Of a stretch of 64,000 bases of DNA, positions 4,266-46,307 are shown in pieces. Source of the DNA: Candidatus Levyibacteriota bacterium. Its GTDB lineage: Bacteria > Patescibacteriota > Microgenomatia > Levybacterales > UBA12049. The notes beneath the pieces are model-generated. The model was not told the DNA's origin, did not search any database, and saw only the letters and a list, made by a program, of their open reading frames with translations. Positions within the stretch are counted from its first letter, which is position 1. Each line of letters starts with the position of its first letter. The stretch covers positions 31,000 through 94,999 of the forward strand of contig JACQHJ010000002.1 of NCBI GenBank assembly GCA_016199085.1, in the 5' to 3' direction. Position numbers and translations under genes: made by a program.

Positions 4266-4940
4266 ATGAAAATGAAGATAATAAAAGTAAAAGATGCTGG
4301 TGAAGGAGTAGATAAGGCGAAAAGTTTTATCTACAAATACTCCAATAGTCAAACCGCTTTATTTCTCTCAGGCGGTTTGACCCCAAAAGCCCTGTATCAA
4401 ACTCTTTCCACTGATAAAAAACTAAAGGCCGGAGCAGTTGCGGTTGTAGATGAAAGATTTGGGTTACCATTCCATGACAACTCAAATGAAAAAATGATCA
4501 AAGACTCACATCTTTTTGAATATCTTAAATCGACAAACACTTTGGTATTTACGGTTTTAAACGGAAAGGATATTGATAATACTACGAAAGATTATGAAAA
4601 AATCATCTCAAGGTTGTTTAAATCTTACAAACAAAAAATTGCTATCCTGGGAATTGGGGAGGACGGACATACGGCGGGTATTCCTAAAGGATACTACAAT
4701 TCAAATGAGTTGGTAATAAAAATAGATGATTTTCCCTCGGAGTTTAGGAAGCGTATTACTTTAACCTTTAAAGCACTAGAACAGATGGATAGGTTAATCG
4801 TTTTGGTTTTTGGTGAAAATAAAAAAAAGGTTTTAAATGAAATGTTTAAGAAGGGTTTACTTGAAGAACTTCCTGCAAGATTTTATTTACAGAAGGAAAT
4901 TTCTCAAAAGACTATTTTAATTACAGACCAGGCAGTTTAA
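4266..4940 (+). CDS. pgl: 6-phosphogluconolactonase
   Basis: Glucosamine-6-P isomerase/6PGL family motif ILGIGEDGHTAG; lies next to zwf and gnd. Confidence 0.7.
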   Translation: MKMKIIKVKDAGEGVDKAKSFIYKYSNSQTALFLSGGLTPKALYQTLSTDKKLKAGAVAVVDERFGLPFHDNSNEKMIKDSHLFEYLKSTNTLVFTVLNGKDIDNTTKDYEKIISRLFKSYKQKIAILGIGEDGHTAGIPKGYYNSNELVIKIDDFPSEFRKRITLTFKALEQMDRLIVLVFGENKKKVLNEMFKKGLLEELPARFYLQKEISQKTILITDQAV

Positions 4941-5413
4941 GTATCTCTTTGAATTTTTCTACTTAACCTTTGAATTCCTTTTTTGGACATTTTCGATCTC
5001 CAGAGCACTATTGCTCCCTCTCCTTCATAGGGGTTTGGAATTGCGGTTTGAATAGCCATTACATTAAATCCTTCTTGTGGACTATAGACTAATTCATACG
5101 ACCTATATAAATCATGTGATTGTCCATTAACCAGACTGACACCTTCTTTTCTATCAACACCTCCTAAAAGATATGTTTTGTCAACTCTATCAAGGTAAAG
5201 CCTGGGGCGTCTGTAGTAGAAAGCATGAAAAAATAATGGATTTGAGTCAGCAGTTCTAACGCTAACGCTTGCGGGGTTTCTAGGATCTTGTTGATAAATT
5301 CTATTTCTTTCAACATAAGAAACCAAATCGACCATGAAAAGAGCTATTGTAGGACTTGGTGGTCTAAAGCTTTCAGGAATTAATATACTCTGTTCTATTT
5401 CTGTTTTTAGCAT
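4937..5413 (-). CDS. Hypothetical protein, compositionally atypical
   Basis: 158-aa ORF overlapping the pgl stop by 4 nt on the opposite strand; Arg/Pro/Tyr-rich; no known motif. Confidence 0.4.
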   Translation of the reverse strand: MLKTEIEQSILIPESFRPPSPTIALFMVDLVSYVERNRIYQQDPRNPASVSVRTADSNPLFFHAFYYRRPRLYLDRVDKTYLLGGVDRKEGVSLVNGQSHDLYRSYELVYSPQEGFNVMAIQTAIPNPYEGEGAIVLWRSKMSKKGIQRLSRKIQRDT

Positions 5414-5467
5414 CTGGATATTATACCGAAAAATTGCCAGAAGTTTATAAATTCAAGGAGAAGTATT

Positions 5468-5983
5468 TTACCGTCTAGCTGGGGGAAGACTTCTGAAAAT
5501 TGTTCTATCAAATAATCCTCTTAATTTTCCCAAAGCGCTTAATCCAGTTGAAACGGGAATGACTGCGTTGGAATCTCGTGGTTCTATAAGAGTAAGCTCA
5601 GCTCTGGCAATTGGTCCAGTGCCATCTCGAAGATATCTTTCCTGTAGCCTGTGACTTGCGGCATGGATTTCTCCTAAAGTGGCAGAAGATACTCCTATCT
5701 CCGTAGGTAGTGTACCATCTGGGTACACCAGGCCTACTTGTCTGATACTTACTCTCTCGATGATGATGGTAGTTCCATTGGTTCGTGTTATGTCGATCTC
5801 AAGTGTTTCGCCGTCTTCTGGTGGCGCAATGCCCTCTGGCCCTATTAACCTAGATGTTAAATCGTCTGCAAAAGCTCTCAATTGTTCATCTTCATGTAAT
5901 TGTTCAGGGGTCAACCTCCATCTACCTGCAATGTCTTGTCTTCTTTCAGTTATGTCTCCTGGCATAGTTGCGAAAATATACAC
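5468..5983 (-). CDS. Hypothetical protein, compositionally atypical
   Basis: 171-aa ORF; Arg/Glu/Thr/Leu-rich; its antisense frame is open (the 5679..6020 extension of the zwf frame), but that extension is Ser/Cys-rich and non-protein-like. Confidence 0.4.
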   Translation of the reverse strand: MYIFATMPGDITERRQDIAGRWRLTPEQLHEDEQLRAFADDLTSRLIGPEGIAPPEDGETLEIDITRTNGTTIIIERVSIRQVGLVYPDGTLPTEIGVSSATLGEIHAASHRLQERYLRDGTGPIARAELTLIEPRDSNAVIPVSTGLSALGKLRGLFDRTIFRSLPPARR

Positions 5984-6020
5984 CTTGATATTTACTTTGT
6001 CAACACCTGACTATATAATC

Positions 6021-7445
6021 ATGTTTATGACTCCTTTTATTTTGGTAATCTTTGGAGCAACGGGAGATCTGGCACAACATAAACTAATCCCAGCCCTTTT
6101 TGCTCTTTTTAAGACAAACCATCTTCCCAAAGATTTTTATATCATCGGTTTCTCAAGAAGAGAATTTAAAGACGAAGAGTTTCATAGTTATTTTAAACCT
6201 CAATTGGAAGATCCTAAGTGGAAAGATTTTACCAGCCATCTTTTTTACCAATCGGCAAGTTTTGAAGAAAAAAACGGATATGAAAATCTCAACAAAAAGC
6301 TTTTAGAAATAGATGAGAAATTGGGAGCCTGCATAGCTAGATTTTTCTATCTTGCAACCCCGCCTGATCACTACGAAACAATTTTGGAAAAGCTTGTTGA
6401 AACAAAATTGTCTGAAGGATGCGGGCATGATAAAGGAAACTGGACAAGGCTTATTATTGAAAAGCCCTTTGGTAAAGACTTGGATACTGCAAAAGCCTTG
6501 GATAAAAAACTTGCCGAGATTTTTGAAGAAAAACAGATCTTTAGGGTAGACCACTATCTCGGCAAAGAAACCGTCCAAAACATGCTGGCATTTAGGTTTG
6601 CCAACGGAATTTTTGAGCCTGTCTGGAAAAAGGAATATATAGATCATGTCCAGATTACTTTTGCCCAGGATGAGGGAGTAGGAACCAGAGGAAAGTTCTT
6701 TGACGGAATTGGAATATTACGAGACATTGCCCAAAACCATTTATTGCAGCTGTTAGCTGCCGTAGCCATGGAAAGCCCCAAGAGTTTTACAAAAGAGGAC
6801 CTAAGAGATGCAAGAGCAGAGGTAATAAAAAATGTAAAAGTAGCTGATAATAATTCAATTATCAGGGGACAATATGAGGGGTACAAAGATGAAAAAGACG
6901 TAGAAAAAGATTCTGATACCGAAACATTTGTGGCGATGAAAATGTTTGTTAATACTAAAAGATTTAACGGCGTTCCTTTCTATGTTAGGGCAGGGAAGAA
7001 ATTAAAAAAAGAGGTAGTTGAGATATCGGTTGTCTTTATCCAAACGTGTCACATTTTGTTTAAGGAATACGGCTGTCCCGAGATCGGTAATGTAATCACA
7101 TTTCGAATCCAGCCGAATGAAGGGATAAGTTTAAGATTTATCGCAAAAACTCCCGGTGCAAAACTAGGTCTTGAGTCGGTTGACATGAAATTTAATTACA
7201 AAGAGGGTTTTGGAACAAGTGGTTTGGAAGCATACGAAAGAGTCTTGCTTGATATATTTGCAGGAGATCAGACTCTTTTTAACAGAAGCGATGAGTTGGA
7301 AAGTTCTTGGAAGTTTATTACTGAAATTTTAACTAAGTGGGAACAAAATAAAAGTGATTTATTAACCTACGAACAAGGAACGCTGGGTCCAGACAGGTCA
7401 AATGAATTAATAGAACAAGATGATAAGAAATGGCTTTTGATATGA
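6021..7445 (+). CDS. zwf: Glucose-6-phosphate 1-dehydrogenase
   Basis: N-terminal Rossmann motif LVIFGATGDLAQHKLIPALF, RVDHYLGKE active-site motif; start placed at ATG 6021 because the 5679 frame extension is non-homologous; ends TGA. Confidence 0.85.
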   Translation: MFMTPFILVIFGATGDLAQHKLIPALFALFKTNHLPKDFYIIGFSRREFKDEEFHSYFKPQLEDPKWKDFTSHLFYQSASFEEKNGYENLNKKLLEIDEKLGACIARFFYLATPPDHYETILEKLVETKLSEGCGHDKGNWTRLIIEKPFGKDLDTAKALDKKLAEIFEEKQIFRVDHYLGKETVQNMLAFRFANGIFEPVWKKEYIDHVQITFAQDEGVGTRGKFFDGIGILRDIAQNHLLQLLAAVAMESPKSFTKEDLRDARAEVIKNVKVADNNSIIRGQYEGYKDEKDVEKDSDTETFVAMKMFVNTKRFNGVPFYVRAGKKLKKEVVEISVVFIQTCHILFKEYGCPEIGNVITFRIQPNEGISLRFIAKTPGAKLGLESVDMKFNYKEGFGTSGLEAYERVLLDIFAGDQTLFNRSDELESSWKFITEILTKWEQNKSDLLTYEQGTLGPDRSNELIEQDDKKWLLI

Positions 7446-8356
7446 AAATAGGTTTTATTGGTCTTGGGAGAATGGGTAACAGAATGGTAGGGAAATTGAC
7501 TTTAGAAGGACACAATGTAGTTGTCTGGAACAGAACTTTGCAGGTTGCAAAAGATCTCCAAAAAGAAATAAATTCGATTCAGGTTTCTTCAAGTATTAAA
7601 GAGCTTATAGATTCACTCCCAAGGCCTAAAGTTATTTGGATTATGGTTTCTCACCAAGGTGTAGACGAAGTTTTAGATGAGGTTAAAAAATATTCAAAAA
7701 GTGGCGATGTGGTCGTAGATGGAGGCAATTCACATTTCCAAGATACTGAAAAAAGATTTAACGAGTTTGAAAAATTAGGAATTCACTTTTTGGGTATTGG
7801 AACAAGCGGTGGAATAGTTGCAACTAAAAACGGTTATCCTTTTATGGTCGGGGGAAGCAAAAAGGGATATGACATTATTAAGCCCATTTTGGATTCTTTA
7901 GCAAAACCACACGGAGGTCATCAGTATTTTGGAAAAGGCGGAGCAGGGCATTTTGTCAAAATGGTTCATAACGGAATTGAATACGGTATTATGCAGTCTC
8001 TTGGTGAAGGGTTCGAGGTCTTAGAAAAATCAAAATATAATTTCAATCTTTTAGATGTTGCAAAGCTTTGGCAAAAAGGCACTTTGGTTTCCGGTTTTAT
8101 GTTAGATAGGGCAAAAGACGCTTTGGAGAAAAATTCAAAGTTAGACGATATTGTCGGTGTTATTGATGCCTCAGGCGAAGCCTTATGGACAATAGAGGCA
8201 GCTAAAAAAGAAAATGTTAAAGTTGAAATAATTGAAAGATCGCTGGATTACAGGAAAAGATCAAAAACCGATAAGAAGATTCAGCAAAGCTTTACTGCCA
8301 GAATGGTTGCCGCTTTAAGAAGAGAATTCGGAGGACACGAAGTAAAGAAGCGTTAA
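7430..8356 (+). CDS. gnd: 6-phosphogluconate dehydrogenase, decarboxylating (short about 300-aa form)
   Basis: IGFIGLGRMGNRM NAD(P)-binding motif, GGNSHFQDT, GTSGG, GAGHFVKMVHNGIEYG; overlaps the zwf stop. Confidence 0.8.
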   Translation: MAFDMKIGFIGLGRMGNRMVGKLTLEGHNVVVWNRTLQVAKDLQKEINSIQVSSSIKELIDSLPRPKVIWIMVSHQGVDEVLDEVKKYSKSGDVVVDGGNSHFQDTEKRFNEFEKLGIHFLGIGTSGGIVATKNGYPFMVGGSKKGYDIIKPILDSLAKPHGGHQYFGKGGAGHFVKMVHNGIEYGIMQSLGEGFEVLEKSKYNFNLLDVAKLWQKGTLVSGFMLDRAKDALEKNSKLDDIVGVIDASGEALWTIEAAKKENVKVEIIERSLDYRKRSKTDKKIQQSFTARMVAALRREFGGHEVKKR

Positions 8357-12539: not shown

Positions 12540-13691
12540 TTAATTTGCTTGGGGTGAAATTTCTTCCGAATTGGGCAGAGAGGTTTGAGCATAATTACCA
12601 TCTCTTCGTAATGATTTTTCTACAGCTTGTCTGGCTTTCCCCAATGGATCCTTATTTCGTCCCAATGCTCGGTCTAAGAAGCTTCTTCTATGTCGAGGTC
12701 GCCAACCGTCTTGGATTCGCAATACTCCTAGCCTATGTTGTTGTCTAATTTTTTCATGTTCTAGGTTTTCGGCAGATAATGCTATCCTTCCAAAATTTGC
12801 TGTTTCAAGTCCTGCTGTTTTTGCCCCCATCTGGGATTTGGGAGAATTAAAATGCCACCATTCATCTGGATATGCTTGCAGGCCAACGTCTTTCATTATA
12901 TGATACAAAAGTCTTCTATTTCTTAAAGCCTCATTTTCCTCATCCGTAAGTGGTCTTTCTTGCGCTAATTGTTCAAAGTATGTTGAGGAAGCTTTTTCGC
13001 CGCCGTGATCAAATGGGGTCCCAAAATAAAGGTAGGCCCCATGGCTTTTAATAGTTGTCATTTCCATTTCTAGGTCATATCTATGCAAGTCTGTGTCTGG
13101 TAAATCTTTGATTTCCTCCTCAATCTCACTTATTCTTTGTGCTTGCTCATCTGGGACTCTTATGATTGCAAGATCAACCGCTCCGCCCGTATTGTGGGGA
13201 GAAGGTTTTGCTGGGTCGCTAGAGGGTAAAGAAACAAATTTTTGTGCCTCGGTCGTTAATTGTTCTTCTGTCCAATCAGGATGTAATTTTTGTAATTCTG
13301 AATAGTATTTTTCATATAAAGCTCCTTGTATTTGTAATGTTCTATATGCGTCATGGATTATTAGGAAATGGTTTCTTGGGAGGAGTGCTTGAGCTTTTTC
13401 CAGAGCCTCGGCAACACTTGGTCTTACAAACATAGTTGTCAAAGATCCAGGAAGTCTTTGCGGATCTACTAAGTTCTGGTCTTGCCTGTAGGGAGAGTTA
13501 TCTCTTTCTCCAGAGTAAATTGAATCAGTGAAGATTCTAGGATGGTTTGAAAAAGCACCTAATGGGACAAGGTAAGCATCTTCTCCTAGCTGTTCGGGTG
13601 CGATGGGGATTTCTTTCCAGCCAGCGACGCTTGGTATATTAAGAGGTATTGGAATATCTCTTCTATCAATTGAGGTTGATTTTTCAGGCAT
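12540..13691 (-). CDS. VanX/DdpX-type D-Ala-D-Ala dipeptidase homolog (LAS zinc metallopeptidase) with N- and C-terminal extensions
   Basis: SPHNTGGAVDLAII (SxHxxGxAxD zinc-ligand motif) and DEWWHF (ExxH catalytic motif) as in VanX; 383 aa versus about 200 aa for VanX; 7 nt downstream of ddl on the same strand; atypical composition. Confidence 0.5.
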   Translation of the reverse strand: MPEKSTSIDRRDIPIPLNIPSVAGWKEIPIAPEQLGEDAYLVPLGAFSNHPRIFTDSIYSGERDNSPYRQDQNLVDPQRLPGSLTTMFVRPSVAEALEKAQALLPRNHFLIIHDAYRTLQIQGALYEKYYSELQKLHPDWTEEQLTTEAQKFVSLPSSDPAKPSPHNTGGAVDLAIIRVPDEQAQRISEIEEEIKDLPDTDLHRYDLEMEMTTIKSHGAYLYFGTPFDHGGEKASSTYFEQLAQERPLTDEENEALRNRRLLYHIMKDVGLQAYPDEWWHFNSPKSQMGAKTAGLETANFGRIALSAENLEHEKIRQQHRLGVLRIQDGWRPRHRRSFLDRALGRNKDPLGKARQAVEKSLRRDGNYAQTSLPNSEEISPQAN

Positions 13692-13698
13692 AAGAAAA

Positions 13699-14631
13699 TT
13701 ATACTGCTTTTTTAATTAATATTTCTAAGAATTCATTGAAACTTAGGCCTACTGCCTTTGCTTCTTTCGGAAGAAGGCTTCCTTCGGTAAGACCTGGAAT
13801 TGTATTAACATCAATTGCGTAGGGAATATCTTTATAGACCATAAAATCGGTTCGTGAATAAGTTCCTAAATCAAATGCATTGTGAATCCTTAAAGTTAAG
13901 TCCTGTATTTTTTCCTGAAGCCCTTTATCTAAAGATGGGGCAAAGGGAATTTCCTTGGTAGTATTGTCGTATTTGACTTTATAGGAAAACCAGGTGTCTT
14001 TCGTAGGAACTATTTCGATAATCGGGAGTGCTTTCTTATTAAGTATTCCTACAGTTATATCATATCCTTTAAGATATTCTTCAACGAAAGTTGGAGTATT
14101 AAAGGAAAGTATCTTTTTAACATCGGCTCTATTTAAATCATCTTTTGTTTTTATAATAGCGACTTCTCTTGATGAACCTCCGTTTGAAGTTTTTAAAACA
14201 CAGGGAATACCAAACTTTAAAATATCATTTTTGTTTTTAACAATTTTCCATTTTGGAGTTTTAATGCCATTTTTATCGCAATACTTTTTAAAAGGAATTT
14301 TATACCAACCACCTTTAAGACCTTTATAATTTCTTGTTCCGACAATCGGTTTATTAATGCTTGCTAAAAATTTATGTAATTTTCCACCTTCTCCTTCTTC
14401 TCCGTGCAAAACAGGGAAGAGAACATCAAAATCTTTTGAAACCTTTTTAATAGGTAAATAACCGTTTCTTAGGTCGTACAACTTAACTTTATGTCCGTTT
14501 TGGATAAATGTTTTCTTAACATTTCTTGCAGAATTTAAAGAAACAGGTCTTTCCGAGGAATTGCCGCCTGTAATGATCAATATCTTCATAAAAGGTTCTT
14601 TATATGTATCATTTTGATCCTGTTTTGTCAA
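13699..14631 (-). CDS. ddl: D-alanine--D-alanine ligase
   Basis: ATP-grasp Ddl motifs: N-terminal KILIITGGNSSERPVSLNSA, VLFPVLHGEEGEGG, C-terminal EIPFAPSLD...GLSF. Confidence 0.8.
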   Translation of the reverse strand: MTKQDQNDTYKEPFMKILIITGGNSSERPVSLNSARNVKKTFIQNGHKVKLYDLRNGYLPIKKVSKDFDVLFPVLHGEEGEGGKLHKFLASINKPIVGTRNYKGLKGGWYKIPFKKYCDKNGIKTPKWKIVKNKNDILKFGIPCVLKTSNGGSSREVAIIKTKDDLNRADVKKILSFNTPTFVEEYLKGYDITVGILNKKALPIIEIVPTKDTWFSYKVKYDNTTKEIPFAPSLDKGLQEKIQDLTLRIHNAFDLGTYSRTDFMVYKDIPYAIDVNTIPGLTEGSLLPKEAKAVGLSFNEFLEILIKKAV

Positions 14632-22153: not shown

Positions 22154-23062
22154 ATGCAAGACTTGGGTTACGATAAGCCTCTTTACATTTTGCCGTTTGA
22201 TCATCGCAGTGCTTTTGCTCCGCTTTTCAATGTTACTTCTGCAAGTGACTTAGATTCACTCCAAAGACATGCAATAAAAGAATTAAAAATGCTTATTTAT
22301 AAAGGATTCAAAAAAGCCCTGGATATGGGTATTCCAGCGGAATTTGGCGCAATACTTTGTGATGAAGAGTTTGGCCAGGAAGTTTTAATTGATGCAAAGC
22401 ACAATGGCTTTATTACAATCCTTACAACTGAAAAAAGCGGAGAAAGTGAGTTTAAATTCCAATATCCGGACAGTTTTGAAGATCATATTCTTTCCATGCG
22501 TCCTACATTTGCAAAGGCTTTGGTAAGATATAATCCAAAAGACCCCCAAAACATTAAAGATTCCCAGAAAAAGAACCTAAAGCTTTTAAGTGATTTTTCC
22601 CATCAAGAGAATTTTAAATTCCTTCTTGAGGTACTTATTGTCCCAAATACTAAACAGCTTTCGGAGTTTGCTGATAGGGAAGAATTTGACAGAAATTTAA
22701 GACCGAACTTAGCGGTTGAAGTAATAGATGAGCTGCAAAGCTTTGGTGTAGAGCCTGATGTCTGGAAGCTTGAGGGATTTGAAGAAATAAAAGATTACAA
22801 ACTTGTTTTAGAAGAAATTAAAAAAGATAATAGGGAAAGAGTAGGTCTTGTCATTTTAGGAAGGGGAGCAGCAGAGGAAAAAGTAGAGGAATGGCTAAAG
22901 ATTGGGTCGGGTATCAAAGGCGTTATCGGTTTTGCAGTTGGAAGAACAGTTTTTTGGCAAGCAATTGAAAAGTTTCATAAAGGAGAAGTTGGCAAAGCAG
23001 AAGTTATAGATACGGTTTCTTCTAATTTTTACAAGTTCTACAAAATCTTTACAGGTAAGTAG
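22154..23062 (+). CDS. Class I aldolase-like protein (LacD/tagatose-bisphosphate aldolase or DUF2090-like)
   Basis: N-terminal PLYILPFDHRSAF resembles the LacD-family ALAFDQRGAL motif; sits beside the transketolase genes; assignment tentative. Confidence 0.35.
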   Translation: MQDLGYDKPLYILPFDHRSAFAPLFNVTSASDLDSLQRHAIKELKMLIYKGFKKALDMGIPAEFGAILCDEEFGQEVLIDAKHNGFITILTTEKSGESEFKFQYPDSFEDHILSMRPTFAKALVRYNPKDPQNIKDSQKKNLKLLSDFSHQENFKFLLEVLIVPNTKQLSEFADREEFDRNLRPNLAVEVIDELQSFGVEPDVWKLEGFEEIKDYKLVLEEIKKDNRERVGLVILGRGAAEEKVEEWLKIGSGIKGVIGFAVGRTVFWQAIEKFHKGEVGKAEVIDTVSSNFYKFYKIFTGK

Positions 23063-23063
23063 C

Positions 23064-24050
23064 TTATCTTGTAATTACTTTTTCCACAGCTTCAATTATT
23101 GCGGTTTCATCCATCTTATATTTCCTAAGTAATTCCACGGGTTTTCCACTTTCTCCAAATGTATCCTGCAGTCCTACAAATTCCATAGGAGTTGGGAGGT
23201 TTTTTGCCAAAACTTCGGCTATCATCGATCCCATACCTCCCATAACCTGGTGATCTTCTACGGTTACTACACGGCCTGATTGTCTTGCTAAATCAACTAT
23301 TGTTTTTTCATCTGCCGGTTTTATTGTTGCTAAGTTTGCCACAATTGTATCTATTCCTTTTTGCTCCAAGGCTTTTGCGGAAAGTAAGGCGTAGTAAAGC
23401 ATATAGCCGGTTGCAAAAATCGTTGCCTTGGGATTTTCACTTATCCAAAAGCTTTCAATAGCCCGTTGATTAAAAGGAGTTTTTTCGGAAGTTATGACAG
23501 GTGTTTTATCCCTTGTAAACCTTAGGTAGACAGGGCCCTTGATATTTACAGATTCCAAAGTTATCTTCTTGGCTTCCCAGAAGTCGCAAGGGACGAAAAC
23601 AGTAACACCGGGTAGACTTCTTGTAATAGCAATATCTTCTGTTGCCTGATGTGTGGCTCCGTCTGCGCCAGTTGCAATGCCGCTATGGTGTCCGGCAATT
23701 TTTACGTTGGCATTGTTATAAGCAATTGTCGTTCTTATGGTTTCAAGGTTTTTCCCTGGAGAAAATACAGCGTAAGAGCAAATAAAGGGAATTTTGCCCG
23801 ATATTGCAAGGCCAGCTGCAATAGCTGCCATGTTTTGCTCTGCAACTCCTACTTCAAAAAACCTTTCCGGGAATTTTTTTGCAAATCCTTCGGCTCTTGT
23901 ACTTTCAGACAAATCTGCAGTTAAAACAACAACGTCTTTGTTTTTTTCTCCTAAAGATATAAGAGCGTCTCCAAAGCCGTCTCTTGTTGCTTTCTCATCG
24001 ATTTTGGTCTCAAATATAGCCTGATTTAAAAATAATTTTGGATTTAGCAT
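23064..24050 (-). CDS. tkt: Transketolase, C-terminal (pyrimidine-binding) subunit
   Basis: GFGDALISLGEKNKDVVVLTADLSEST, EVGVAEQNM, GATHQATEDIA motifs of the Tkt Pyr and C-terminal domains; split-gene arrangement with the upstream N-terminal subunit. Confidence 0.85.
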   Translation of the reverse strand: MLNPKLFLNQAIFETKIDEKATRDGFGDALISLGEKNKDVVVLTADLSESTRAEGFAKKFPERFFEVGVAEQNMAAIAAGLAISGKIPFICSYAVFSPGKNLETIRTTIAYNNANVKIAGHHSGIATGADGATHQATEDIAITRSLPGVTVFVPCDFWEAKKITLESVNIKGPVYLRFTRDKTPVITSEKTPFNQRAIESFWISENPKATIFATGYMLYYALLSAKALEQKGIDTIVANLATIKPADEKTIVDLARQSGRVVTVEDHQVMGGMGSMIAEVLAKNLPTPMEFVGLQDTFGESGKPVELLRKYKMDETAIIEAVEKVITR

Positions 24051-24051
24051 A

Positions 24052-24951
24052 CTATCCTTCGTTTTGTATTCTTCCTTGCAATGTTCTTAGTTCTTCGAGT
24101 GCTTTTTTTGCTTGGCTATCGTTTGGCGGTTTTCCATGCCAAGTAAAATCCTTTTCCATAAAAGAAACTCCAAAGCCGGGAATTGTATGGGCAATGATGA
24201 CGGTTGGTTTTTCAAATATACTCTTGGCTTTTGAAACTGCATCAACAAATTCTCTGATATTGTTTCCGTTGACCTCCAAGACTTCCCAGTTAAAGGCAAT
24301 GTATTTGTCCTTTAAAGGCTCCAGCGGCATGACGTTTTCCGTAAAGCCGTCAATTTGAATATTGTTTCGATCAATTATCAAAGTTAAGTTGTTTAATTTT
24401 GCTTTTCCTGCAAACATTACAGCTTCCCACGTATTTCCTTCTTCTTGTTCTCCGTCTGAGGCTATCACAAAAGTGTGATATTTTTTCTTATCCAGCTTTG
24501 CAGAAAGTGCAATTCCAATTCCTTGAGATAGTCCTTCTCCCAAAGGCCCGGAAGTTGTTTCAAGTCCTGGTAGGGAGTTTCTGTGAGGATGTCCCTGAAG
24601 TCTTGAGTTTATTTTCCTCAATGTTTTTAGTTCTTCCTTTTCGAAATATCCGCTCATTGCCATAACCGCGTATCTGATAGGGCAGATGTGTCCGTTTGAT
24701 AAAATTAACCTGTCTCTATCTCTTAAATCAGGCTTTTTTGGATCGTGGTTTAAGATGTGGAAATATAAAGCTACAAATATATCAGCCATACCCAAAGGTC
24801 CTGCGCTATGTCCAGAGCCTGCCTCCAAAAGCATTTCTATCACAAGCTTTCTTGCTTCAACAGCTTTTAGCTCTAATTCTTTGAGTTTGTCGTCTAGCAA
24901 TAGGGGAGTATCCATATATTTTATATTAGCATTAAAGTTGACTATTAACAA
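24052..24951 (-). CDS. tkt: Transketolase, N-terminal (TPP-binding) subunit
   Basis: GSGHSAGPLGMADIFVALYF, ILSNGHICPIRYAVMA, DGEQEEGNTWEA TPP-binding motifs. Confidence 0.85.
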   Translation of the reverse strand: MLIVNFNANIKYMDTPLLLDDKLKELELKAVEARKLVIEMLLEAGSGHSAGPLGMADIFVALYFHILNHDPKKPDLRDRDRLILSNGHICPIRYAVMAMSGYFEKEELKTLRKINSRLQGHPHRNSLPGLETTSGPLGEGLSQGIGIALSAKLDKKKYHTFVIASDGEQEEGNTWEAVMFAGKAKLNNLTLIIDRNNIQIDGFTENVMPLEPLKDKYIAFNWEVLEVNGNNIREFVDAVSKAKSIFEKPTVIIAHTIPGFGVSFMEKDFTWHGKPPNDSQAKKALEELRTLQGRIQNEG

Positions 24952-30116: not shown

Positions 30117-31175
30117 ATGTGTTATAATTTTAAAATGTCAAAAAAAGGTTTTGCCATTATAGCCTTAATTTTAATATTAGTATCTGCTTCTTTTGCATAT
30201 TCAAAAATAAGTATCCCAAAACTTAATATTCCTCTCCAGACTGATTTCAATGACAACATGGGTGGGGAAGTTGCAGAAGAACCCTACAGCCTTTCCATAG
30301 AGGCATTAAGAAAAGGTAATTATCCGGGTAGCGAGTTTGTAATAGAAGAGGCGCTTACGCCTGGGAGCAACTACTCACGCTATCTTGTTTCATACTTTTC
30401 GGAGGGCCTTAAAATCTATGCTCTCTTAACAGTTCCAAATGGGACGCCACCAGAAGGAGGATTTCCTGCAATTGTTTTTAACCACGGATATATTCCGCCA
30501 AGTGAATATAGGACAACCGAAAGATATATTGCTTATACTGATGCATTTTCGTCAAATGGCTATGTTTTACTTAGGCCTGATTATAGGGGTCACGGAAATT
30601 CCGAGGGGAATCCGACTGGCGCCTACGGATCAAATGGTTATACGATTGATGTTTTAAATGCTCTTTCGTCTCTAAGAAAATATCCTAGCGTAAATACTCA
30701 AAAAATTGGTATGTGGGGACACTCAATGGGTGGTTTTATCACTCTTCGGGCAATGGTGGTAGACAAAGATATTAAAGCAGGTGTTATCTGGGCAGGGGTT
30801 GTCGCATCTTATCAGGATCTTTTTGAGAGATGGAGAAAAAGATTTATTCCCTCAACAACTCCGTCAACAAGGGGAGGGAGTTGGAGACAGGCCTTATCCC
30901 AGCAATTTGGAAGCCCATCCCAAAATCCTACCTTTTGGAACAGCCTTTCCGCAAATTCCTATCTTACAGATATTTCTGGTCCGATTCAGCTTCATCACGG
31001 AACAGCAGATACCTCTGTTCCCGTTGAGTTTTCCGAAAAATTGGAAAAGCAAATGCAGGCAGCAGGGAAAGCAGTAGAGCTATATACATATCCTGGTGAT
31101 GATCACAATCTTTCTTCAAATTTTTCTCTGGCAGCGAATCGATCGGTTGAGTTTTTCGATAAATACCTCAAATAA
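30117..31175 (+). CDS. Secreted alpha/beta-hydrolase (S9/dienelactone-hydrolase-like), paralog 1
   Basis: N-terminal signal/TM, nucleophile elbow GHSMGG, HHGTADTSVP catalytic His region. Confidence 0.7.
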   Translation: MCYNFKMSKKGFAIIALILILVSASFAYSKISIPKLNIPLQTDFNDNMGGEVAEEPYSLSIEALRKGNYPGSEFVIEEALTPGSNYSRYLVSYFSEGLKIYALLTVPNGTPPEGGFPAIVFNHGYIPPSEYRTTERYIAYTDAFSSNGYVLLRPDYRGHGNSEGNPTGAYGSNGYTIDVLNALSSLRKYPSVNTQKIGMWGHSMGGFITLRAMVVDKDIKAGVIWAGVVASYQDLFERWRKRFIPSTTPSTRGGSWRQALSQQFGSPSQNPTFWNSLSANSYLTDISGPIQLHHGTADTSVPVEFSEKLEKQMQAAGKAVELYTYPGDDHNLSSNFSLAANRSVEFFDKYLK

Positions 31176-31467: not shown

Positions 31468-32622
31468 CTAGATAGAATTTAATAAATCTTTTGCCTCTGT
31501 CAGGTTTTCATTATAAAAAACCGCTTTTTCAAATTCATTCCTTGCTGCCTCAATATTACCCTGGCTTTGGTAAATCTTTCCCCTTAAAACATACAGTTCT
31601 GAAAAAGCTCGGTTATGGTTATTTAAAACTCTATCAGTTATTTCAAAAACTTTTGTATAATTTCCCAATTCATAATATGCAAGGATAGGCTCTATCTGGT
31701 ACCAAAGTGTTCTGAAAGGAAGACCGTTTTCAACCTTCTCAAACTCTTCAGTGCTTTTTTGAAATTCTCCTATATTGTAGTATGCAACTGAAAGATTAAA
31801 CCTTGTATAGATATCGTCTGGATTTTCTCTAAGTTGCATTAGTGAGTTTTCTACCGCTTTTTGCCAGGCGACTTTTTCATTTAGATCTTCACCCAAAATC
31901 TGTTTTGCGATTTCCTGCTTTTTTACCGGAACCAAAACAAGGTATTCATAGTTAAACTTTTTCCAGATTTCATTAAAATCAGAATATGAATATTGCAAAT
32001 TTTTGTTCTGCAGGGAATCATCCTGAATTAAAACCCCTTTATTTTCATCGTATCCCTTAACAATTCTGTAGTGGCCGATATCCTCATTGGGTTTTGTCCA
32101 GGTTCTTGTAATAACGGGAATATCATAGGCAATAAAATATTTAATCAAAGTTTCGTTTCCCATAGGCCTATGATAGGGGATTAAATCATATTCTTTGGAT
32201 TTTTCTGCAAGTTCTTCAAGTGTAACTGATTTGTCATCGTTATCTCCTCCGGGAATTTGGTATGGTCTTAAGGCATTACCTAGTTCTTGTTGGGAGACAT
32301 TAATTCCGTAGTATGAAAGCGCCATGGACAATGCCGCAGGACCGCAGTTATTAAATGTCTGAAAGATATGGTAATCATTTGTAAGTATTTTTCGTTTTGT
32401 AGGAGTTTGTAAAAGAATATTTTGTGCCGGAGTAGGGGAAGCATTTTCAAAATTTGAAATACTTTGGGGAATTAAAATTTTTGTATTTTGCGATTTAATA
32501 AAAACCAAGACTATTGAAAGAATTGTAATTGCAAAAGGGAAAAGTATTCCAAGAAAAATAAAAGTTAATCTATTATTTTTTGGCTTTTCAATTGTTTCTA
32601 AATTTTTGGTAGAATACTCCAT
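31468..32622 (-). CDS. Membrane-anchored peptidase C39-like domain protein with C-terminal TPR repeats
   Basis: N-terminal TM; NNCGPAALSMALSYYG Cys motif and downstream His (IGHYRIV) as in Peptidase_C39_2; TPR-like repeats (AYYNIGEF..., AYYELGNY..., YQSQGNIEAARNEFEKA). Confidence 0.55.
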   Translation of the reverse strand: MEYSTKNLETIEKPKNNRLTFIFLGILFPFAITILSIVLVFIKSQNTKILIPQSISNFENASPTPAQNILLQTPTKRKILTNDYHIFQTFNNCGPAALSMALSYYGINVSQQELGNALRPYQIPGGDNDDKSVTLEELAEKSKEYDLIPYHRPMGNETLIKYFIAYDIPVITRTWTKPNEDIGHYRIVKGYDENKGVLIQDDSLQNKNLQYSYSDFNEIWKKFNYEYLVLVPVKKQEIAKQILGEDLNEKVAWQKAVENSLMQLRENPDDIYTRFNLSVAYYNIGEFQKSTEEFEKVENGLPFRTLWYQIEPILAYYELGNYTKVFEITDRVLNNHNRAFSELYVLRGKIYQSQGNIEAARNEFEKAVFYNENLTEAKDLLNSI

Positions 32623-33210
32623 ATGCGCAAAAAAATTATAATTCTGGTTACTTTATTTATCGCCTTAGCCATCTTTAGTTTTCTTACAACGTTGTTTGTA
32701 CAAAAACCCGTACAAAGTGAAATAAAAGAAATTGCAAAACACCACTGGTTTTTATTACACAGAAAATCAAATATTGAATATTTGTACTATGGAACTTTTG
32801 GTGATGCTAATAATAGCCAACTTTTAAAGACATTTCAAGTAAAAGTAGGACAAATCTTAAGTCCGACGCCATTGCCCCAGCTTTTGGGAAGAGGCTATTG
32901 GCTGCTTATTAAAAAAGAATCTTCAAGTGAGAACCTTGATACAGCTCCATATTTTCTAACACTTGATGTGCCATCAAACGGGGAGTGGCCATACGGTCCA
33001 ACGCCATATCTAGAATGTAACGGACAATGTGACTGGCAAATGCCCGGCTACTTTGGATTACATGGAATTAATGGAAACTTAGATAAGCTTTCAAGTGAAG
33101 ATGTGGGAAGTTTGGGATGCGTAAGACACAAAGATGAGGATATTACGTATTTGTATAACACCTTACATCCGGAGACTGAGGAGATAAGATACTATATTGT
33201 AGATATTTAA
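32623..33210 (+). CDS. L,D-transpeptidase (YkuD domain)
   Basis: Signal/TM then GLHGINGN...SLGCVRHK (His and Cys catalytic motif of LDTs). Confidence 0.7.
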   Translation: MRKKIIILVTLFIALAIFSFLTTLFVQKPVQSEIKEIAKHHWFLLHRKSNIEYLYYGTFGDANNSQLLKTFQVKVGQILSPTPLPQLLGRGYWLLIKKESSSENLDTAPYFLTLDVPSNGEWPYGPTPYLECNGQCDWQMPGYFGLHGINGNLDKLSSEDVGSLGCVRHKDEDITYLYNTLHPETEEIRYYIVDI

Positions 33211-33212
33211 AA

Positions 33213-34328
33213 ATGGAGCAACCTGAAATCCCAAAAGATTTAGAAAAACCACAAATTATCCAAAATCCACAAAGGAGAAAAAACTGGATTATTAAATCTG
33301 CGTTTTTGGTTGTGGTTTTATTTTTGGGAGTATTTATTTATGTAAAACAAAATAGTGCTGTTAGATATGAGGAGATTACACAAAATCTTCCCCAAAATAG
33401 TGGAATACTTCCAACGCCAACACCTTTCTTATTTGAAGAAATGACGGTGCCTTTTCTAAGAAGAAAAACTTATGAAAGTAATCTTTCCGCGTTAGAAAAA
33501 GTTTCAGAAAATTCTAGCTATACGTCTTATCTAACGAGCTACAAATCAGACGGATTAAATATAAATGGACTTATTACAATTCCTAAGGGAAATACTCCTA
33601 TCGGAGGTTTTCCTGCAATTGTCTTTGTTCATGGATATATCCCTCCCAAAAGTTACCAGACACTTGTTAACTATTCTTCGTATGTAGACTATCTTGCAAA
33701 AAATGGATTTGTAGTTTTCAAAATAGATTTAAGAGGACATGCAAAATCCGAGGGAGATCCGGGCGGATCATACTACTCCTCAGACTATATAGTCGATGTT
33801 CTAAGCGCATATTCTGCACTGCAAGCTTCTGATTTTGTAGATCCTAAGGCAATCGGTCTTTGGGGACATAGCATGGCAGGAAATGTTGTTGCAAGAAGTC
33901 TTGCAGCAAAACCAGATATACCAGCAGTTGTCATCTGGGCAGGCGCTGTTTATACATATAAAGATTTCCAAGACTACGGAATCTCCGACAACAGTTATCA
34001 ATCACCACCGCAAGACACCCAAAGACAAAGAAGAAGAAAACTTCTTTTTGATACATACGGGCAGTTTAGTCAAGATTCAGAATTCTGGAAACAAATTCCG
34101 ATGACAAATTATCTAACGGATATTAAAGGAGCAATTTCCTTAAACCATGCAGTTAATGATAATGTTGTCGACATTAGATATAGCAGGGGACTTAGTGAAA
34201 TATTAGATAAGACAAATATAGTTCATGAGTTAAACGAATACCCAAGCGGAGGACATAATTTATTGGGGAATACTTTTGTTTTGGCAATGGATAATACAGT
34301 TGAATTCTTTAGAGAGAATTTAAAATAG
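33213..34328 (+). CDS. Secreted alpha/beta-hydrolase, paralog 2
   Basis: Similar architecture to 30117..31175: GFPAIVFVHGYIPP, GHSMAGN nucleophile elbow. Confidence 0.7.
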   Translation: MEQPEIPKDLEKPQIIQNPQRRKNWIIKSAFLVVVLFLGVFIYVKQNSAVRYEEITQNLPQNSGILPTPTPFLFEEMTVPFLRRKTYESNLSALEKVSENSSYTSYLTSYKSDGLNINGLITIPKGNTPIGGFPAIVFVHGYIPPKSYQTLVNYSSYVDYLAKNGFVVFKIDLRGHAKSEGDPGGSYYSSDYIVDVLSAYSALQASDFVDPKAIGLWGHSMAGNVVARSLAAKPDIPAVVIWAGAVYTYKDFQDYGISDNSYQSPPQDTQRQRRRKLLFDTYGQFSQDSEFWKQIPMTNYLTDIKGAISLNHAVNDNVVDIRYSRGLSEILDKTNIVHELNEYPSGGHNLLGNTFVLAMDNTVEFFRENLK

Positions 34329-42930: not shown

Positions 42931-44028
42931 ATGTTAGGGATTGGAATTGTCGGTCTTCCAAATGTTGGAAAATCAACGCTTTTTAACGCGCTTTTGAAAA
43001 AACAGCAGGCTTTGGCTGCAAACTATCCCTTTGCCACAATTGAGCCAAACATAGGAGTTGTTGCTGTCCCTGATGAAAGACTAACCAAGCTTGCCGAAAT
43101 AACAAGTAAAGAGGAGAAAATGGCAAGTCTTCCCCCCATTAAGCCGGCTACTGTTGAATTTGTCGATATTGCAGGACTTGTTAAGGGAGCCAGTGAGGGA
43201 GCAGGACTTGGCAACAAATTCCTTTCTCACATAAGAGAGGTTTCGGTCATAGCCCACGTTGTAAGAAGTTTTGAAGACGATAATGTCATAAAAGAAGGAG
43301 CAGTTGATCCAAAATCAGACTTTGAAACAATTAGAACCGAACTTCAGATTGCAGACTTACAAACTCTGCAAAATCTCAATGAAAAAGCCTTAAGAACAGA
43401 TCCTGTTAAAAAATCCGTCGTCGAAAAACTAAAGGCAGTTTTAAATGAAGGAAAAAATGCATTTGAAATAAAGCTTTCCGAGGAAGAAAGTATTTCAATT
43501 AAGGAATTAAGTCTTTTAACTGCAAAAAAAGAAATTGTTGTTTTAAATATTTCAGAAGGGGATTATAATCCCGAGTCAATTGCAAACATTGTTAGTAAAT
43601 ACTCGGACCTTCTTAAAATTGATGGTGAAAAACTTGTCGTAATCTGTGCAAAAATAGAATCTGATTTAGCATCGCTTTCCGAGGATGAACAGAAAGAATA
43701 CTTAAAAAGCTTAGGAATTGATAAGTCAGGTCTTGAAAGACTCATTCAAAAAGCATACCTAGAACTTGGTCTTATTTCTTTTTTAACAGCCGGAGTTAAG
43801 GAGGTAAGGGCATGGACAATTAAAAAAGGTTTTACAGCTTCCTTGGCAAGCGGAGAAATTCATACGGATTTTATGAAGAAATTTATAAAAGCAGAGGCCG
43901 TATCCTTTGAAAATTTTGTAGAGTATGGTGGATGGAAAGGCGCAAGGGAGAAGGGAAAAGCAAGGCTTGAGGGAAGGGATTATATTGTTAATGATGGAGA
44001 TATTATTGAGTTTAAGATAGGGACTTGA
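42931..44028 (+). CDS. ychF: Ribosome-binding ATPase YchF
   Basis: [18 protein letters not shown]-loop, TGS-type C-terminal domain, 365 aa. Confidence 0.85.
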
Positions 44029-44066
44029 TTGACTTCTGAAATTCTAAACTGTAAAATTGGCAAATT

Positions 44067-45479
44067 ATGTTAGGTGAATATCGACCAGCTACTATTCCGC
44101 GACCGGAAATTCTAAGAAGAGTTGATTTAGAAGATAGGCTGGCAAAAAGAGTTTTCATTACCGGGGCATATATGCAAACTCCATTTGGGGGATTAAGAAG
44201 CACGCTAGATGCAAGATTAAGGGGAGAATCTGCTGTAGTTTCATTTCCTGATACTGGAATTGATGATGTAAGTGTTGCTGCTCCTTTAAATTTCAATGCT
44301 AGAGAACATCTAGATTTAGGAAGAGAAGATAAATGGTATTCGGAACTTGCAGTTTTGGAACTATATGTAATTACTCAGGCTCTTGGTAGTGCTTCTATGT
44401 TGGATGAGAATGGAAGACTAGACGTAACACGATTAAATGCATATAAAGGTGGTCTTTTTGGTAATTCAGGAATAGGTCAGGCATTAGGCCTTGTAGATAT
44501 ACACGATATGATTAAGCTGAACAATGATCTAAGAAGACAGTTGGCTAGTGGAGAAATTGATAGAGCAACGTTTTTAGAACGACGAGCGGTTATTAAGGGA
44601 TCAGATGCTTTTCGGGCCTTTCCAGACCAAGGTAATTCAAGGACAGCTGAATATCATAAGCTTATGGGGAAAGGAAATTATGCTTCACAGGCTTGTGCAT
44701 CAGGTCAAGCTGCAGTAGTTGATGCATACGAAAGCATAAAAAGCGGAAAAAACCGTTGGGCAATAGCTGGAGGAATTGAAAGATCCCTAACCCATCCTGA
44801 ATTATCTTTTGCCTCATTTGATATCTTGCATTCATTGTCGCATAATCCCGATCCTCAAAGCGCAAGTAGACCGCTTGATAGAAATAGAGATGGTTTTATT
44901 ATTGGTGAAGGAGCAGGATACTTAATCTTAGAAAGTGAGGATCAGGCTTTGGAAAGAGGAGCAACGATACTTGCAGAGATCACTGGGGGAGAAAACGTAA
45001 TGGACGGATTCAAGAAAACAGAGGCAAATCCAGACAGAATTGCTATGGCCATAGGAAAGACATGTGAGGTAGGAGCAGAAGAGGCAACGGAGGAAACTCC
45101 AGAAGGAGATATTGTTTTTCCAGACGTTGCTTATTTACATTTAACGTCAACTGAGCTTGGAGATAGAGTAGAGATAGAAGCAATAAGAAAAGTTTGGGGA
45201 GAATATACCAGATATATTCCTTTAGTAGGCAATAAGTCTGCTTTTGGCCACGCACTTGGAGCAGCAGGGGCAATTAATACTATTGAGGCAGTTTATGGAA
45301 TTATTGACGGAGTTGTTGCTCCGACCATACATCTTAGGGAAAGAGGAGAAGAATTTGAGGACTTAGATGTTGTAGAAACAGCAAGAAGGATTAATCCTCA
45401 GACCGCGCTAGTTACAGCTAATGGATTTGGCGGTTGGACCTCTGCCCTTCTTTTAAAAAAGTTTGATCCAGCAGCTTAG
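44067..45479 (+). CDS. Beta-ketoacyl synthase (FabF/FabB-like KAS), compositionally atypical
   Basis: RVFITGAYMQTPFGG N-terminus, active-site Cys QACASGQAAV, His motifs LHLTSTELGD and NKSAFGHALGAAGA, C-terminal NGFGGWTSALLLKK; insertions relative to about 410-aa FabF. Confidence 0.6.
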   Translation: MLGEYRPATIPRPEILRRVDLEDRLAKRVFITGAYMQTPFGGLRSTLDARLRGESAVVSFPDTGIDDVSVAAPLNFNAREHLDLGREDKWYSELAVLELYVITQALGSASMLDENGRLDVTRLNAYKGGLFGNSGIGQALGLVDIHDMIKLNNDLRRQLASGEIDRATFLERRAVIKGSDAFRAFPDQGNSRTAEYHKLMGKGNYASQACASGQAAVVDAYESIKSGKNRWAIAGGIERSLTHPELSFASFDILHSLSHNPDPQSASRPLDRNRDGFIIGEGAGYLILESEDQALERGATILAEITGGENVMDGFKKTEANPDRIAMAIGKTCEVGAEEATEETPEGDIVFPDVAYLHLTSTELGDRVEIEAIRKVWGEYTRYIPLVGNKSAFGHALGAAGAINTIEAVYGIIDGVVAPTIHLRERGEEFEDLDVVETARRINPQTALVTANGFGGWTSALLLKKFDPAA

Positions 45480-45569: not shown

Positions 45570-46307
45570 CTATTTTGTTCTAGCAGCTTCCAGAAGTGTA
45601 TTTTTCCATCCTCCGATAAATTGATCTCCTGGGCAAGTAGTTTTCGGATTAATTTCTCTATGCCCAAAGATTCTCCCTAAAGAAACAAAGGGGTAATTTT
45701 GTTTAATAATATCAACAACTGCATTTATTTGATTGTCTTGCGGACTTTTATGCTTATAATCTCCTGCTAAAACTATGGCAACGCTTCTTGTATTAATATC
45801 CCAGTCGCCGGACTGCCAACCGATATATTTGTCTTCCAAAAGTCTTTTATTCTTTCCGTTTGGAAAAACAATATGGTGATACGCAAAAAATACCATTTTT
45901 CCGTTCCTGAAATGACCCGACCAGACTGGCTGTCCTTTTACATTATTTCCGTTAACCTCTCCTTTTAGATAGTTACTTCCATATTGCCTAATAAATCCTA
46001 TTGCCGAAAGCTTATCTAATTTCATATGCGGATCTTCATCGCTATGATGAATGACAATAGTGTCAATGGGTTTTCTTTCCTTATCAAAATTAGGACCCTC
46101 TTTGGCTAGGGAAATAAGGTTTTCTTCAAGCATTTGGGTTACGAGATCATAAAATATATGCCTTTCTGTTTTAATTTCAGGATTATCTTCTATGGGGAAA
46201 ACTTTTGTGTTCAAAAAATCAGAAAGCCTTATGTACCAATTGGGATATTGAAGCTGTTTTCTAAATAAGTCCAAATCAAAGCTTGATTTATCATTTGCTA
46301 GTCCCAT
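45570..46307 (-). CDS. N-acetylmuramoyl-L-alanine amidase (Amidase_2/PGRP domain)
   Basis: IVIHHS, GWQSGDWDINTRSVAIVLAGDY, GHREI...TCPG zinc-amidase motifs; start set to internal Met at 46307 (track ORF extends to 46499 through a low-complexity frame). Confidence 0.6.
   Translation of the reverse strand: MGLANDKSSFDLDLFRKQLQYPNWYIRLSDFLNTKVFPIEDNPEIKTERHIFYDLVTQMLEENLISLAKEGPNFDKERKPIDTIVIHHSDEDPHMKLDKLSAIGFIRQYGSNYLKGEVNGNNVKGQPVWSGHFRNGKMVFFAYHHIVFPNGKNKRLLEDKYIGWQSGDWDINTRSVAIVLAGDYKHKSPQDNQINAVVDIIKQNYPFVSLGRIFGHREINPKTTCPGDQFIGGWKNTLLEAARTK

Follow-up and report, generated by a model that had tools for sequence, protein, structure and literature searches.

The ketosynthase gene and its product

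We describe a gene for a divergent ketosynthase (KS) of the KAS I/II type within a 64,000-nucleotide stretch of DNA (the window) from a Candidatus Levyibacteriota bacterium (assembly GCA_016199085.1, contig JACQHJ010000002.1, positions 31,000 to 94,999 of the forward strand). An identical protein is present in the NCBI record as MBI3984550.1, from Candidatus Levybacteria bacterium, where it is labelled 'hypothetical protein HY344_01215' and lies on a contig of 204,621 bp. An in-frame stop precedes the first ATG of the gene, and because the stop-to-stop frame opens at 44055, an earlier start is impossible. The gene and the parts of its product considered below are as follows, with residues matched to FabF by alignment; ACP stands for acyl carrier protein.

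44067..45479, forward strand: KS gene, encoding the 470-residue divergent KAS I/II-type (FabF-like) ketosynthase
44067..44144, forward strand: N-terminal extension, residues 1-26, which ends in DLEDRLAK before the RVxxTG strand; model confidence (pLDDT) 75-88
44331..44345, forward strand: KWYSE, residues 89-93, at ACP-docking region 1 of FabF (K65/R68/K69)
44481..44591, forward strand: helical insertion, approximately residues 139-175, placed by alignments and by DSSP of the structural model
44619..44636, forward strand: FPDQGN, residues 185-190, the FP[DE][EQ] family signature with invariant Phe185
44694..44696, forward strand: codon of catalytic Cys210 (FabF Cys163)
45066..45092, forward strand: acidic nine-residue insert EVGAEEATE, residues 334-342, of lower model confidence
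45138..45140, forward strand: codon of His358 (FabF His303)
45234..45251, forward strand: NKSAFGH, with Lys390 and His395 (FabF Lys335 and His340)
45420..45437, forward strand: NGFGGW, residues 452-457, the GFGG gating loop with Phe454 (FabF Phe400)

Both ketosynthase domains of Pfam are recognised in the protein, PF00109 with 62.2 bits and PF02801 with 55.1 bits (gathering cutoff 20.8 bits), in a search that had been proposed when the gene was first noticed from its sequence. The PF00109 match is limited to residues 190-294 and to profile positions 154-252. The best NCBIfam model is fabF (TIGR03150), with 210.3 bits against a cutoff of 493.75 and a match that covers only model positions 148-407. 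The protein reaches no NCBIfam cutoff, and the FabB, KasA and PKS-type (polyketide synthase) models all score below fabF. A sequence search against solved structures also places FabF first (B. subtilis 4LS5, E 6e-45); the alignment to solved FabF spans only residues ~200-467, at 25-30% identity.

The original prediction had read a full KAS catalytic set in three motifs, QACASGQ (208-214), LHLTSTELGD (357-366) and SAFGHALGAAG (391-401). It was correct: in HMMER alignments to FabF structures and in MAFFT alignments, Cys210, His358 and His395 fall on the FabF triad of Cys163, His303 and His340. Lys390 takes the place of FabF Lys335, and the GFGG loop, which has a gating role in FabF (PMC7138838), is aligned as well. 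Cys210, His358, His395 and Lys390 are invariant across a 66-sequence alignment, and these four residues together with Phe454 and the GFGG gate are invariant in 17 divergent proteins that form the 'long KS' family described below.

An AlphaFold2 model built from the 66-sequence alignment has a pLDDT of 95.3 and a pTM of 0.94. When this model is compared with the PDB by Foldseek, the top matches are all FabF (E ~1e-39, ~450 columns, TM 0.87 normalised to target length). Since the match to the FabF fold runs over the whole model, the N-terminal half, divergent as it is in sequence, is still predicted to be a thiolase fold, and the modelled protein has the complete two-half thiolase fold. By fold and catalytic residues the protein is a genuine, intact condensing enzyme of the KAS I/II type. 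It is a divergent variant and not a FabF equivalog or an ordinary FabF.

Added residues and the carrier-docking surface

The protein is ~57 residues longer than FabF (470 against 413), close to the roughly 60 residues of insertions first estimated. The additions are an N-terminal extension of ~25 residues, ~20 residues after the GSGIGG loop, and the nine residues EVGAEEATE; two small deletions partly balance them. The extension is conserved across the 'long KS' family and absent from canonical FabF, and the EVGAEEATE insert is restricted to this protein and a relative with 84% identity. The helical insertion consists, by DSSP, of a lengthened helix (139-160) and a short helix (166-172). It replaces the short FabF loop that bears the ACP-docking residues Arg127 and Lys128, and its length varies across the family.

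The residues of the FabF-AcpP interface and of the gating loops have been defined by Mindrebo et al. (PMC7138838), and many of them have equivalents here: D311, E314, T305, T307, D265, T270, I108 and F202 are kept. I108 and F202 are acyl-pocket residues of FabF, and the residues of the phosphopantetheine tunnel are also kept. At the docking surface, two positions are still basic (K65 is Arg, R68 is Lys), and four have changed (K69W, R127A, K128V and R206H), with two arginines just upstream of the R127 position. The tryptophan that stands in for FabF Lys69 is invariant in clade A, the branch of the family to which the window protein belongs. Loop 2, DGFKKTEANP as compared with DAYHMTSPP in FabF, is two residues shorter and is without the Pro-Pro pivot.

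A rare family

In a database of 5.8 billion protein clusters, the window KS has eight relatives above 34% identity, after which come ordinary FabF proteins at ~32%. The N-terminal 205 residues were searched exhaustively against 1.84 billion representatives (E<=1e-3) and matched only 14 proteins, all of them 451-505 residues long except for three fragments, and none of them a canonical FabF; at this threshold the N-terminal half recognises the 'long KS' family alone. Sequence patterns of the close clade matched four loci in 185,579 GTDB species genomes and, across 241 million records from metagenomes, two distinct ones. The metagenome records yielded no further member of the clade; loci L016 and L017 encode ordinary FabF in GC-richer or ACP-containing contexts.

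In a neighbour-joining tree of 53 sequences (100 bootstraps, FabB as outgroup), 17 'long KS' proteins are monophyletic in 100 of 100 replicates and belong neither to the canonical FabF group nor to the NodE-like one. They divide into clade A, with bootstrap 100, and clade B, with bootstrap 94. The family is marked by the N-terminal extension, by an insertion that follows the SGIG loop, and by FP[DE][EQ] with its invariant phenylalanine. As judged from these comparisons, 'long KS' is a very rare, deep-branching family with a remodelled loop 2. In the literature on FabF-like or ketoacyl-ACP synthase genes in the candidate phyla radiation (CPR), Patescibacteria or Levybacteria, we found no description of it.

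Selection, composition and a promoter-like site

A syntenic relative of the gene (locus L003) encodes a protein with 84% identity, at a dN/dS of 0.13 and a dS comparable to that of the neighbouring genes. The neighbours are conserved to a similar degree between the two loci (YchF 88%, S41 peptidase 84%, S18 82% identity). The KS is under purifying selection.

The original prediction called the composition of the gene atypical, and this was right in one respect and wrong in another. The GC content is high (0.409 against a window average of 0.370, rank 9 of 68 genes), and the protein is unusual in being rich in alanine, glycine and arginine and poor in lysine. However, GC at third codon positions (GC3) is low, at 0.229 (rank 66 of 68), and its codon usage lies at an average distance from that of the window pool. 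The low GC3 and average codon usage thus attribute the odd composition to amino-acid content rather than to foreign DNA.

Two further features lie immediately upstream of the gene:

42931..44028, forward strand: ychF (GTPase), the upstream neighbour, syntenic with KS in close relatives
44029..44057, forward strand: promoter-like site, TTGACT-17 nt-TAAAAT, within the 38 bp that separate ychF from the KS gene; its end lies 10 nt ahead of the ATG

Both hexamers of the promoter-like site, and the distance between them, are kept in L003 and in a second relative, L004 (TTGACA-17-TAGAAT), while the sequence of the spacer has diverged. Sites of this kind are no more frequent in the region than expected by chance, and it is the conservation that supports this one. 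The site suggests that the KS gene has a putative promoter of its own and a near-leaderless mRNA.

In one relative with 82% identity, from a GTDB species representative (L011:10001-11412), the KS is split into open reading frames (ORFs) of 169 and 217 residues; the 169-residue piece is protein P0121 of our set. The split is caused by the loss of one A in a run of six, and the remaining frame is intact. It is probably an assembly error, although it may instead be a frameshift of recent date. In gene order L011 is syntenic with the window (HD-YchF-KS), with 87% identity in YchF and 78% in the HD protein, and its GC content is similarly low.

Genomic context of the gene

The window was annotated by a Pfam scan of 60 ORFs, all small ones included, and the surroundings of KS also through synteny with L003. 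Its genes are those of translation, replication and the cell wall, together with a two-component system and toxin-antitoxin pairs. Among the 60 ORFs, Pfam identified no ACP, phosphopantetheinyl transferase (PPTase), malonyl transacylase or reductase of the short-chain dehydrogenase/reductase (SDR) type, and no hotdog dehydratase, KAS III or phospholipid-synthesis gene. Two phmmer tests against the six frames of the window were also empty: one used the ACPs of E. coli and B. subtilis as queries, the other the ketoreductase (KR), dehydratase (DH), acyltransferase (AT), KAS III and PPTase proteins of more distant relatives. The small ORFs of the window were examined for a cryptic ACP and none was found, and the 64 kb hold no second KS-like gene. 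These searches agree with the first description of the gene as a stand-alone enzyme in a housekeeping context, with no acpP and no fabD/G/Z/I within 64 kb. The accompanying remark, that genomes of this kind usually lack a type II pathway for making fatty acids (FAS II), is in line with the Levybacteria name of the identical protein and with published surveys (PMC7242380, PMC4736985).

Relatives with 82-84% identity share a gene order: HD (then toxin-antitoxin genes), YchF, KS, a cell-wall peptidase, Cu-oxidase_4 and S6. In relatives with 48% identity, KS has RNase HII on one side and a glyoxalase-like gene on the other. No fab partner gene stands beside the KS of any close relative, in about 90 kb of flanks. 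We considered ychF, Amidase_2, Peptidase_M15_4 and Cu-oxidase_4 as functional partners and rejected them, since the 48% relatives have other neighbours.

The gene that follows KS in the window is a convergent Amidase_2 (N-acetylmuramoyl-L-alanine amidase) at 45570-46307. At the same position, L003 (5212-6648), L004 and L005 carry a co-directional Peptidase_M15_4 of 478-482 residues, which is likewise a cell-wall hydrolase.

Gene clusters of the sister clade

Clade B comprises P0008, P0123-P0125 and P0128-P0133, which are 30-34% identical to the window KS. Members of this clade have their genes in clusters that resemble those of fatty-acid or polyketide synthesis (FAS/PKS-like). In L009 (1152-6334), KS is followed by a 442-residue protein in which an SDR is fused to a hotdog domain; an 823-residue protein also beside this KS has no Pfam or PDB match. 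In L002 (1283-3526), KS adjoins a 295-residue homologue of the L009 hotdog domain. This protein matches Pfam FabA at E 0.006 and gives ten weak PDB matches, 10 of 10 to FabZ, and it has the FabZ-like motifs GHF and EAAAQT.

Larger sets occur at three other loci. In L019 (3861-10125) and L020 (1-5203), the genes run as follows: Crp regulator, Acyl_transf_1, KR, SDR fusion, KS, methyltransferase and AMP-binding enzyme. In L018 (1-21476, on a contig of 587,947 bp), the genes that flank KS encode a KAS III-like protein, a methyltransferase, an acyltransferase homologue, an SDR fusion and a KR. L018 also has an Sfp-type PPTase 5 kb from KS, which argues for the use of a carrier protein there. The SDR-FabZ-like fusions of these clusters are 442-574 residues long, and the methyltransferase is of class I.

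A profile of the dehydratase part alone matched only nine proteins in the database of 5.8 billion clusters. For two of the nine, SDR and FabA are among the precomputed Pfam domains; none of the nine carries the name Levybacteria. By phmmer, the clade B partner proteins have no homologue in the window or at the clade A loci. From their gene content, the clade B clusters may constitute an undescribed acyl-chain pathway in small genomes.

Other genes in the window

Several other parts of the window deserve brief mention. Two alpha/beta-hydrolases (30117-31175 and 33213-34328; Hydrolase_4, Peptidase_S9, DLH and BAAT_C-type) have N-terminal hydrophobic segments and appear to be membrane-anchored. 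Between them lie a C39-like peptidase with TPR repeats (31468-32622) and a weak YkuD-like ORF (32623-33210). The hydrolases may be esterases or lipases with a bearing on the scavenging of lipids. The stretches 4266-8356 and 22154-24915 hold an oxidative pentose-phosphate set (6-phosphogluconolactonase, glucose-6-phosphate dehydrogenase and a short protein resembling 6-phosphogluconate dehydrogenase), together with DUF2090 and a split transketolase. The glucose-6-phosphate dehydrogenase ORF has ~95 extra N-terminal residues before its Pfam domain, and its true start is probably downstream. On the minus strand at 12540-14589, a 383-residue VanX/VanY-like D-Ala-D-Ala dipeptidase adjoins a D-Ala-D-Ala ligase. 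ARAGORN found no tRNA and no tmRNA gene in the 64 kb.

Interpretation

We consider it likely that the window KS is an active condensing enzyme, maintained by selection, that comes from a rare system resembling fatty-acid or polyketide synthesis, and that it is now genomically isolated. To judge by its residues, it very probably still performs a ping-pong decarboxylative Claisen condensation. An acyl thioester would acylate Cys210; His358 and His395, with Lys390, would remove CO2 from a malonyl-type thioester; and the carbanion so formed would attack the acyl-enzyme to give a beta-ketoacyl thioester, with the GFGG/Phe454 loop serving as a gate. We infer this mechanism from the conserved residues, and likewise infer enzymatic activity, carrier use and a lipid or polyketide-like role. 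The partners encoded in the clade B clusters indicate that the 'long KS' family probably works on phosphopantetheine-bound substrates. In the Levybacteria clade, KS would have been separated from any such partners; it stands alone, with its own conserved promoter-like site, between ychF and cell-wall genes. In view of the clade B clusters, the polyketide-like or lipid-modifying role of the original prediction is plausible.

Several observations weigh against this interpretation. Neither the window nor the surroundings of the gene in close relatives showed a carrier protein, a PPTase or a malonyl source. Even in the clade B clusters, phmmer with the E. coli and B. subtilis ACP queries recognised no ACP. 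Part of the docking surface is altered (K69W, the changes at R127 and K128, R206H, and the lost Pro-Pro), so that use of an ACP is not assured. Finally, one close relative, L011, has its KS apparently split by a single-nucleotide deletion.

The KS could instead be the elongating enzyme, a functional FabF, of a FAS II that is complete but dispersed or divergent, with equivalents of ACP, AcpS, FabD, FabG, FabZ and FabI elsewhere in the Levybacteria genome. Among the alternatives this one holds up best, yet we regard it as rather unlikely. FabF is indeed the closest profile and supplies the closest structures, the I108/F202 pocket is kept, and clade B genes adjoin AT, KR, DH, KAS III and PPTase genes. 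Moreover, our inspection covered 64 kb of the genome, and some CPR bacteria (Nealsonbacteria) are reported to have a near-complete FAS II (PMC7242380). Set against this are the empty 64 kb and the ~90 kb of flanks in close relatives, and the clade B dehydratase profile, whose nine matches in 5.8 billion clusters include none named Levybacteria. CPR genomes are also generally without FAS II (PMC7242380, PMC4736985).

Alternatively, the protein could act solo as a condensing enzyme, with no full elongation cycle around it; it might, for example, extend or modify scavenged host acyl chains by a single beta-keto unit, or accept CoA instead of ACP thioesters. Such an enzyme would account for a KS that stands alone in every close relative, in two genomic locations, under strong purifying selection. 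The altered docking surface and loop 2, and the new helical insertion at the carrier-binding face, would also suit it, as would the reliance of this group of organisms on scavenged lipids (PMC7242380, PMC12455944). Nevertheless, no malonyl-CoA source was seen in the window, and the argument is one from absence in a partial genome. We also know of no KAS I/II-type enzyme that works without a carrier protein. On balance we give this alternative slightly less credence than a dispersed FAS II.

That the gene was recently acquired from a foreign source, as the original prediction had entertained, or is the decaying remnant of a lost pathway, is very improbable: the GC content of 0.409 against 0.370, the L011 frameshift and the patchy rarity of the family would fit, but few genes of the window have a lower GC3 and the codon usage is average, the catalytic residues are all invariant at a dN/dS of 0.13, synteny (at 82-84% identity) and the promoter-like site are kept in relatives, and a single base lost from an A6 run in an otherwise intact frame is typical of an assembly error.

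An isolated but maintained condensing enzyme, as we favour, bears on a wider question. CPR bacteria, which are thought to live on host lipids, generally do not synthesise fatty acids, although FAS II is partly present in a few lineages (PMC7242380, PMC4736985, PMC12455944). Yet here is a KS that is conserved and looks functional, and that is unannotated in the public record. In itself the KS belongs, as a divergent member, to an enzyme class that is very well known. Together with the clade B clusters, however, it suggests that in some such organisms acyl chains are made or remodelled along a path that escapes standard annotation. One could envision, more speculatively, that the 'long KS' family marks an undescribed, highly divergent lipid pathway of the type II FAS/PKS kind in bacteria with ultra-small genomes, and that the Levybacteria KS has been kept alone as a minimal enzyme for modifying acyl chains. 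Scavenged lipids would be its targets, and its substrates might be borne by a non-canonical carrier or by CoA, docked through the helical insertion. We think this full scenario doubtful, and less probable than either a dispersed FAS II or a solo enzyme. Regardless, the KS is a concrete protein to assay, and clade B provides a gene set to seek in whole genomes.

Comparison with known ketosynthases

The window KS is most readily compared with FabF (B. subtilis 4LS5, P. aeruginosa 8QER and E. coli), with which it shares a full-length thiolase-type fold in the predicted structure (TM 0.87). It keeps the Cys-His-His triad and the equivalents of Lys335, Asp311/Glu314, Thr305/307, GFGG/Phe400 and Ile108/Phe202. 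Only its C-terminal 270 residues align with FabF by sequence, at 25-30% identity. It also differs in its N-terminal extension, in the helical insertion at the docking loop, in a shorter loop 2 without Pro-Pro, in not conserving K69, R127, K128 and R206, and in having no acpP or fab neighbours in 64 kb. FabB (KAS I) has the same fold and catalytic set, but the window protein scores only 136.5 bits against the FabB model NF005935 (cutoff 630). For the KS alpha subunit of type II PKS (NF005490), the score is 131.9 bits against a cutoff of 445.

PKS-like ketosynthases are also among the matches, with lower scores (132 and 124 bits): the actinorhodin KS (1TQY), AntD (6SMP), NodE-like proteins and the cispentacin enzyme AmcF. 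These are stand-alone KAS II-like enzymes that come with their own carrier, KR and DH, and sometimes an AMP-ligase, and in this they resemble the surroundings of clade B. The window KS, in contrast, has no adjoining chain-length-factor or carrier gene, and the NodE-like proteins form a separate branch of the tree.

The nearest comparison is with clade B itself. Clade B keeps basic residues like Arg127 (SRR/SRF), which clade A does not, and its genes adjoin AT, KR, SDR-dehydratase, methyltransferase, KAS III, PPTase and AMP-ligase genes, which are missing from the surroundings of clade A. What the window KS and clade B have in common is the N-terminal extension, the site of the insertion, the FP[DE][EQ] signature and the form of loop 2.

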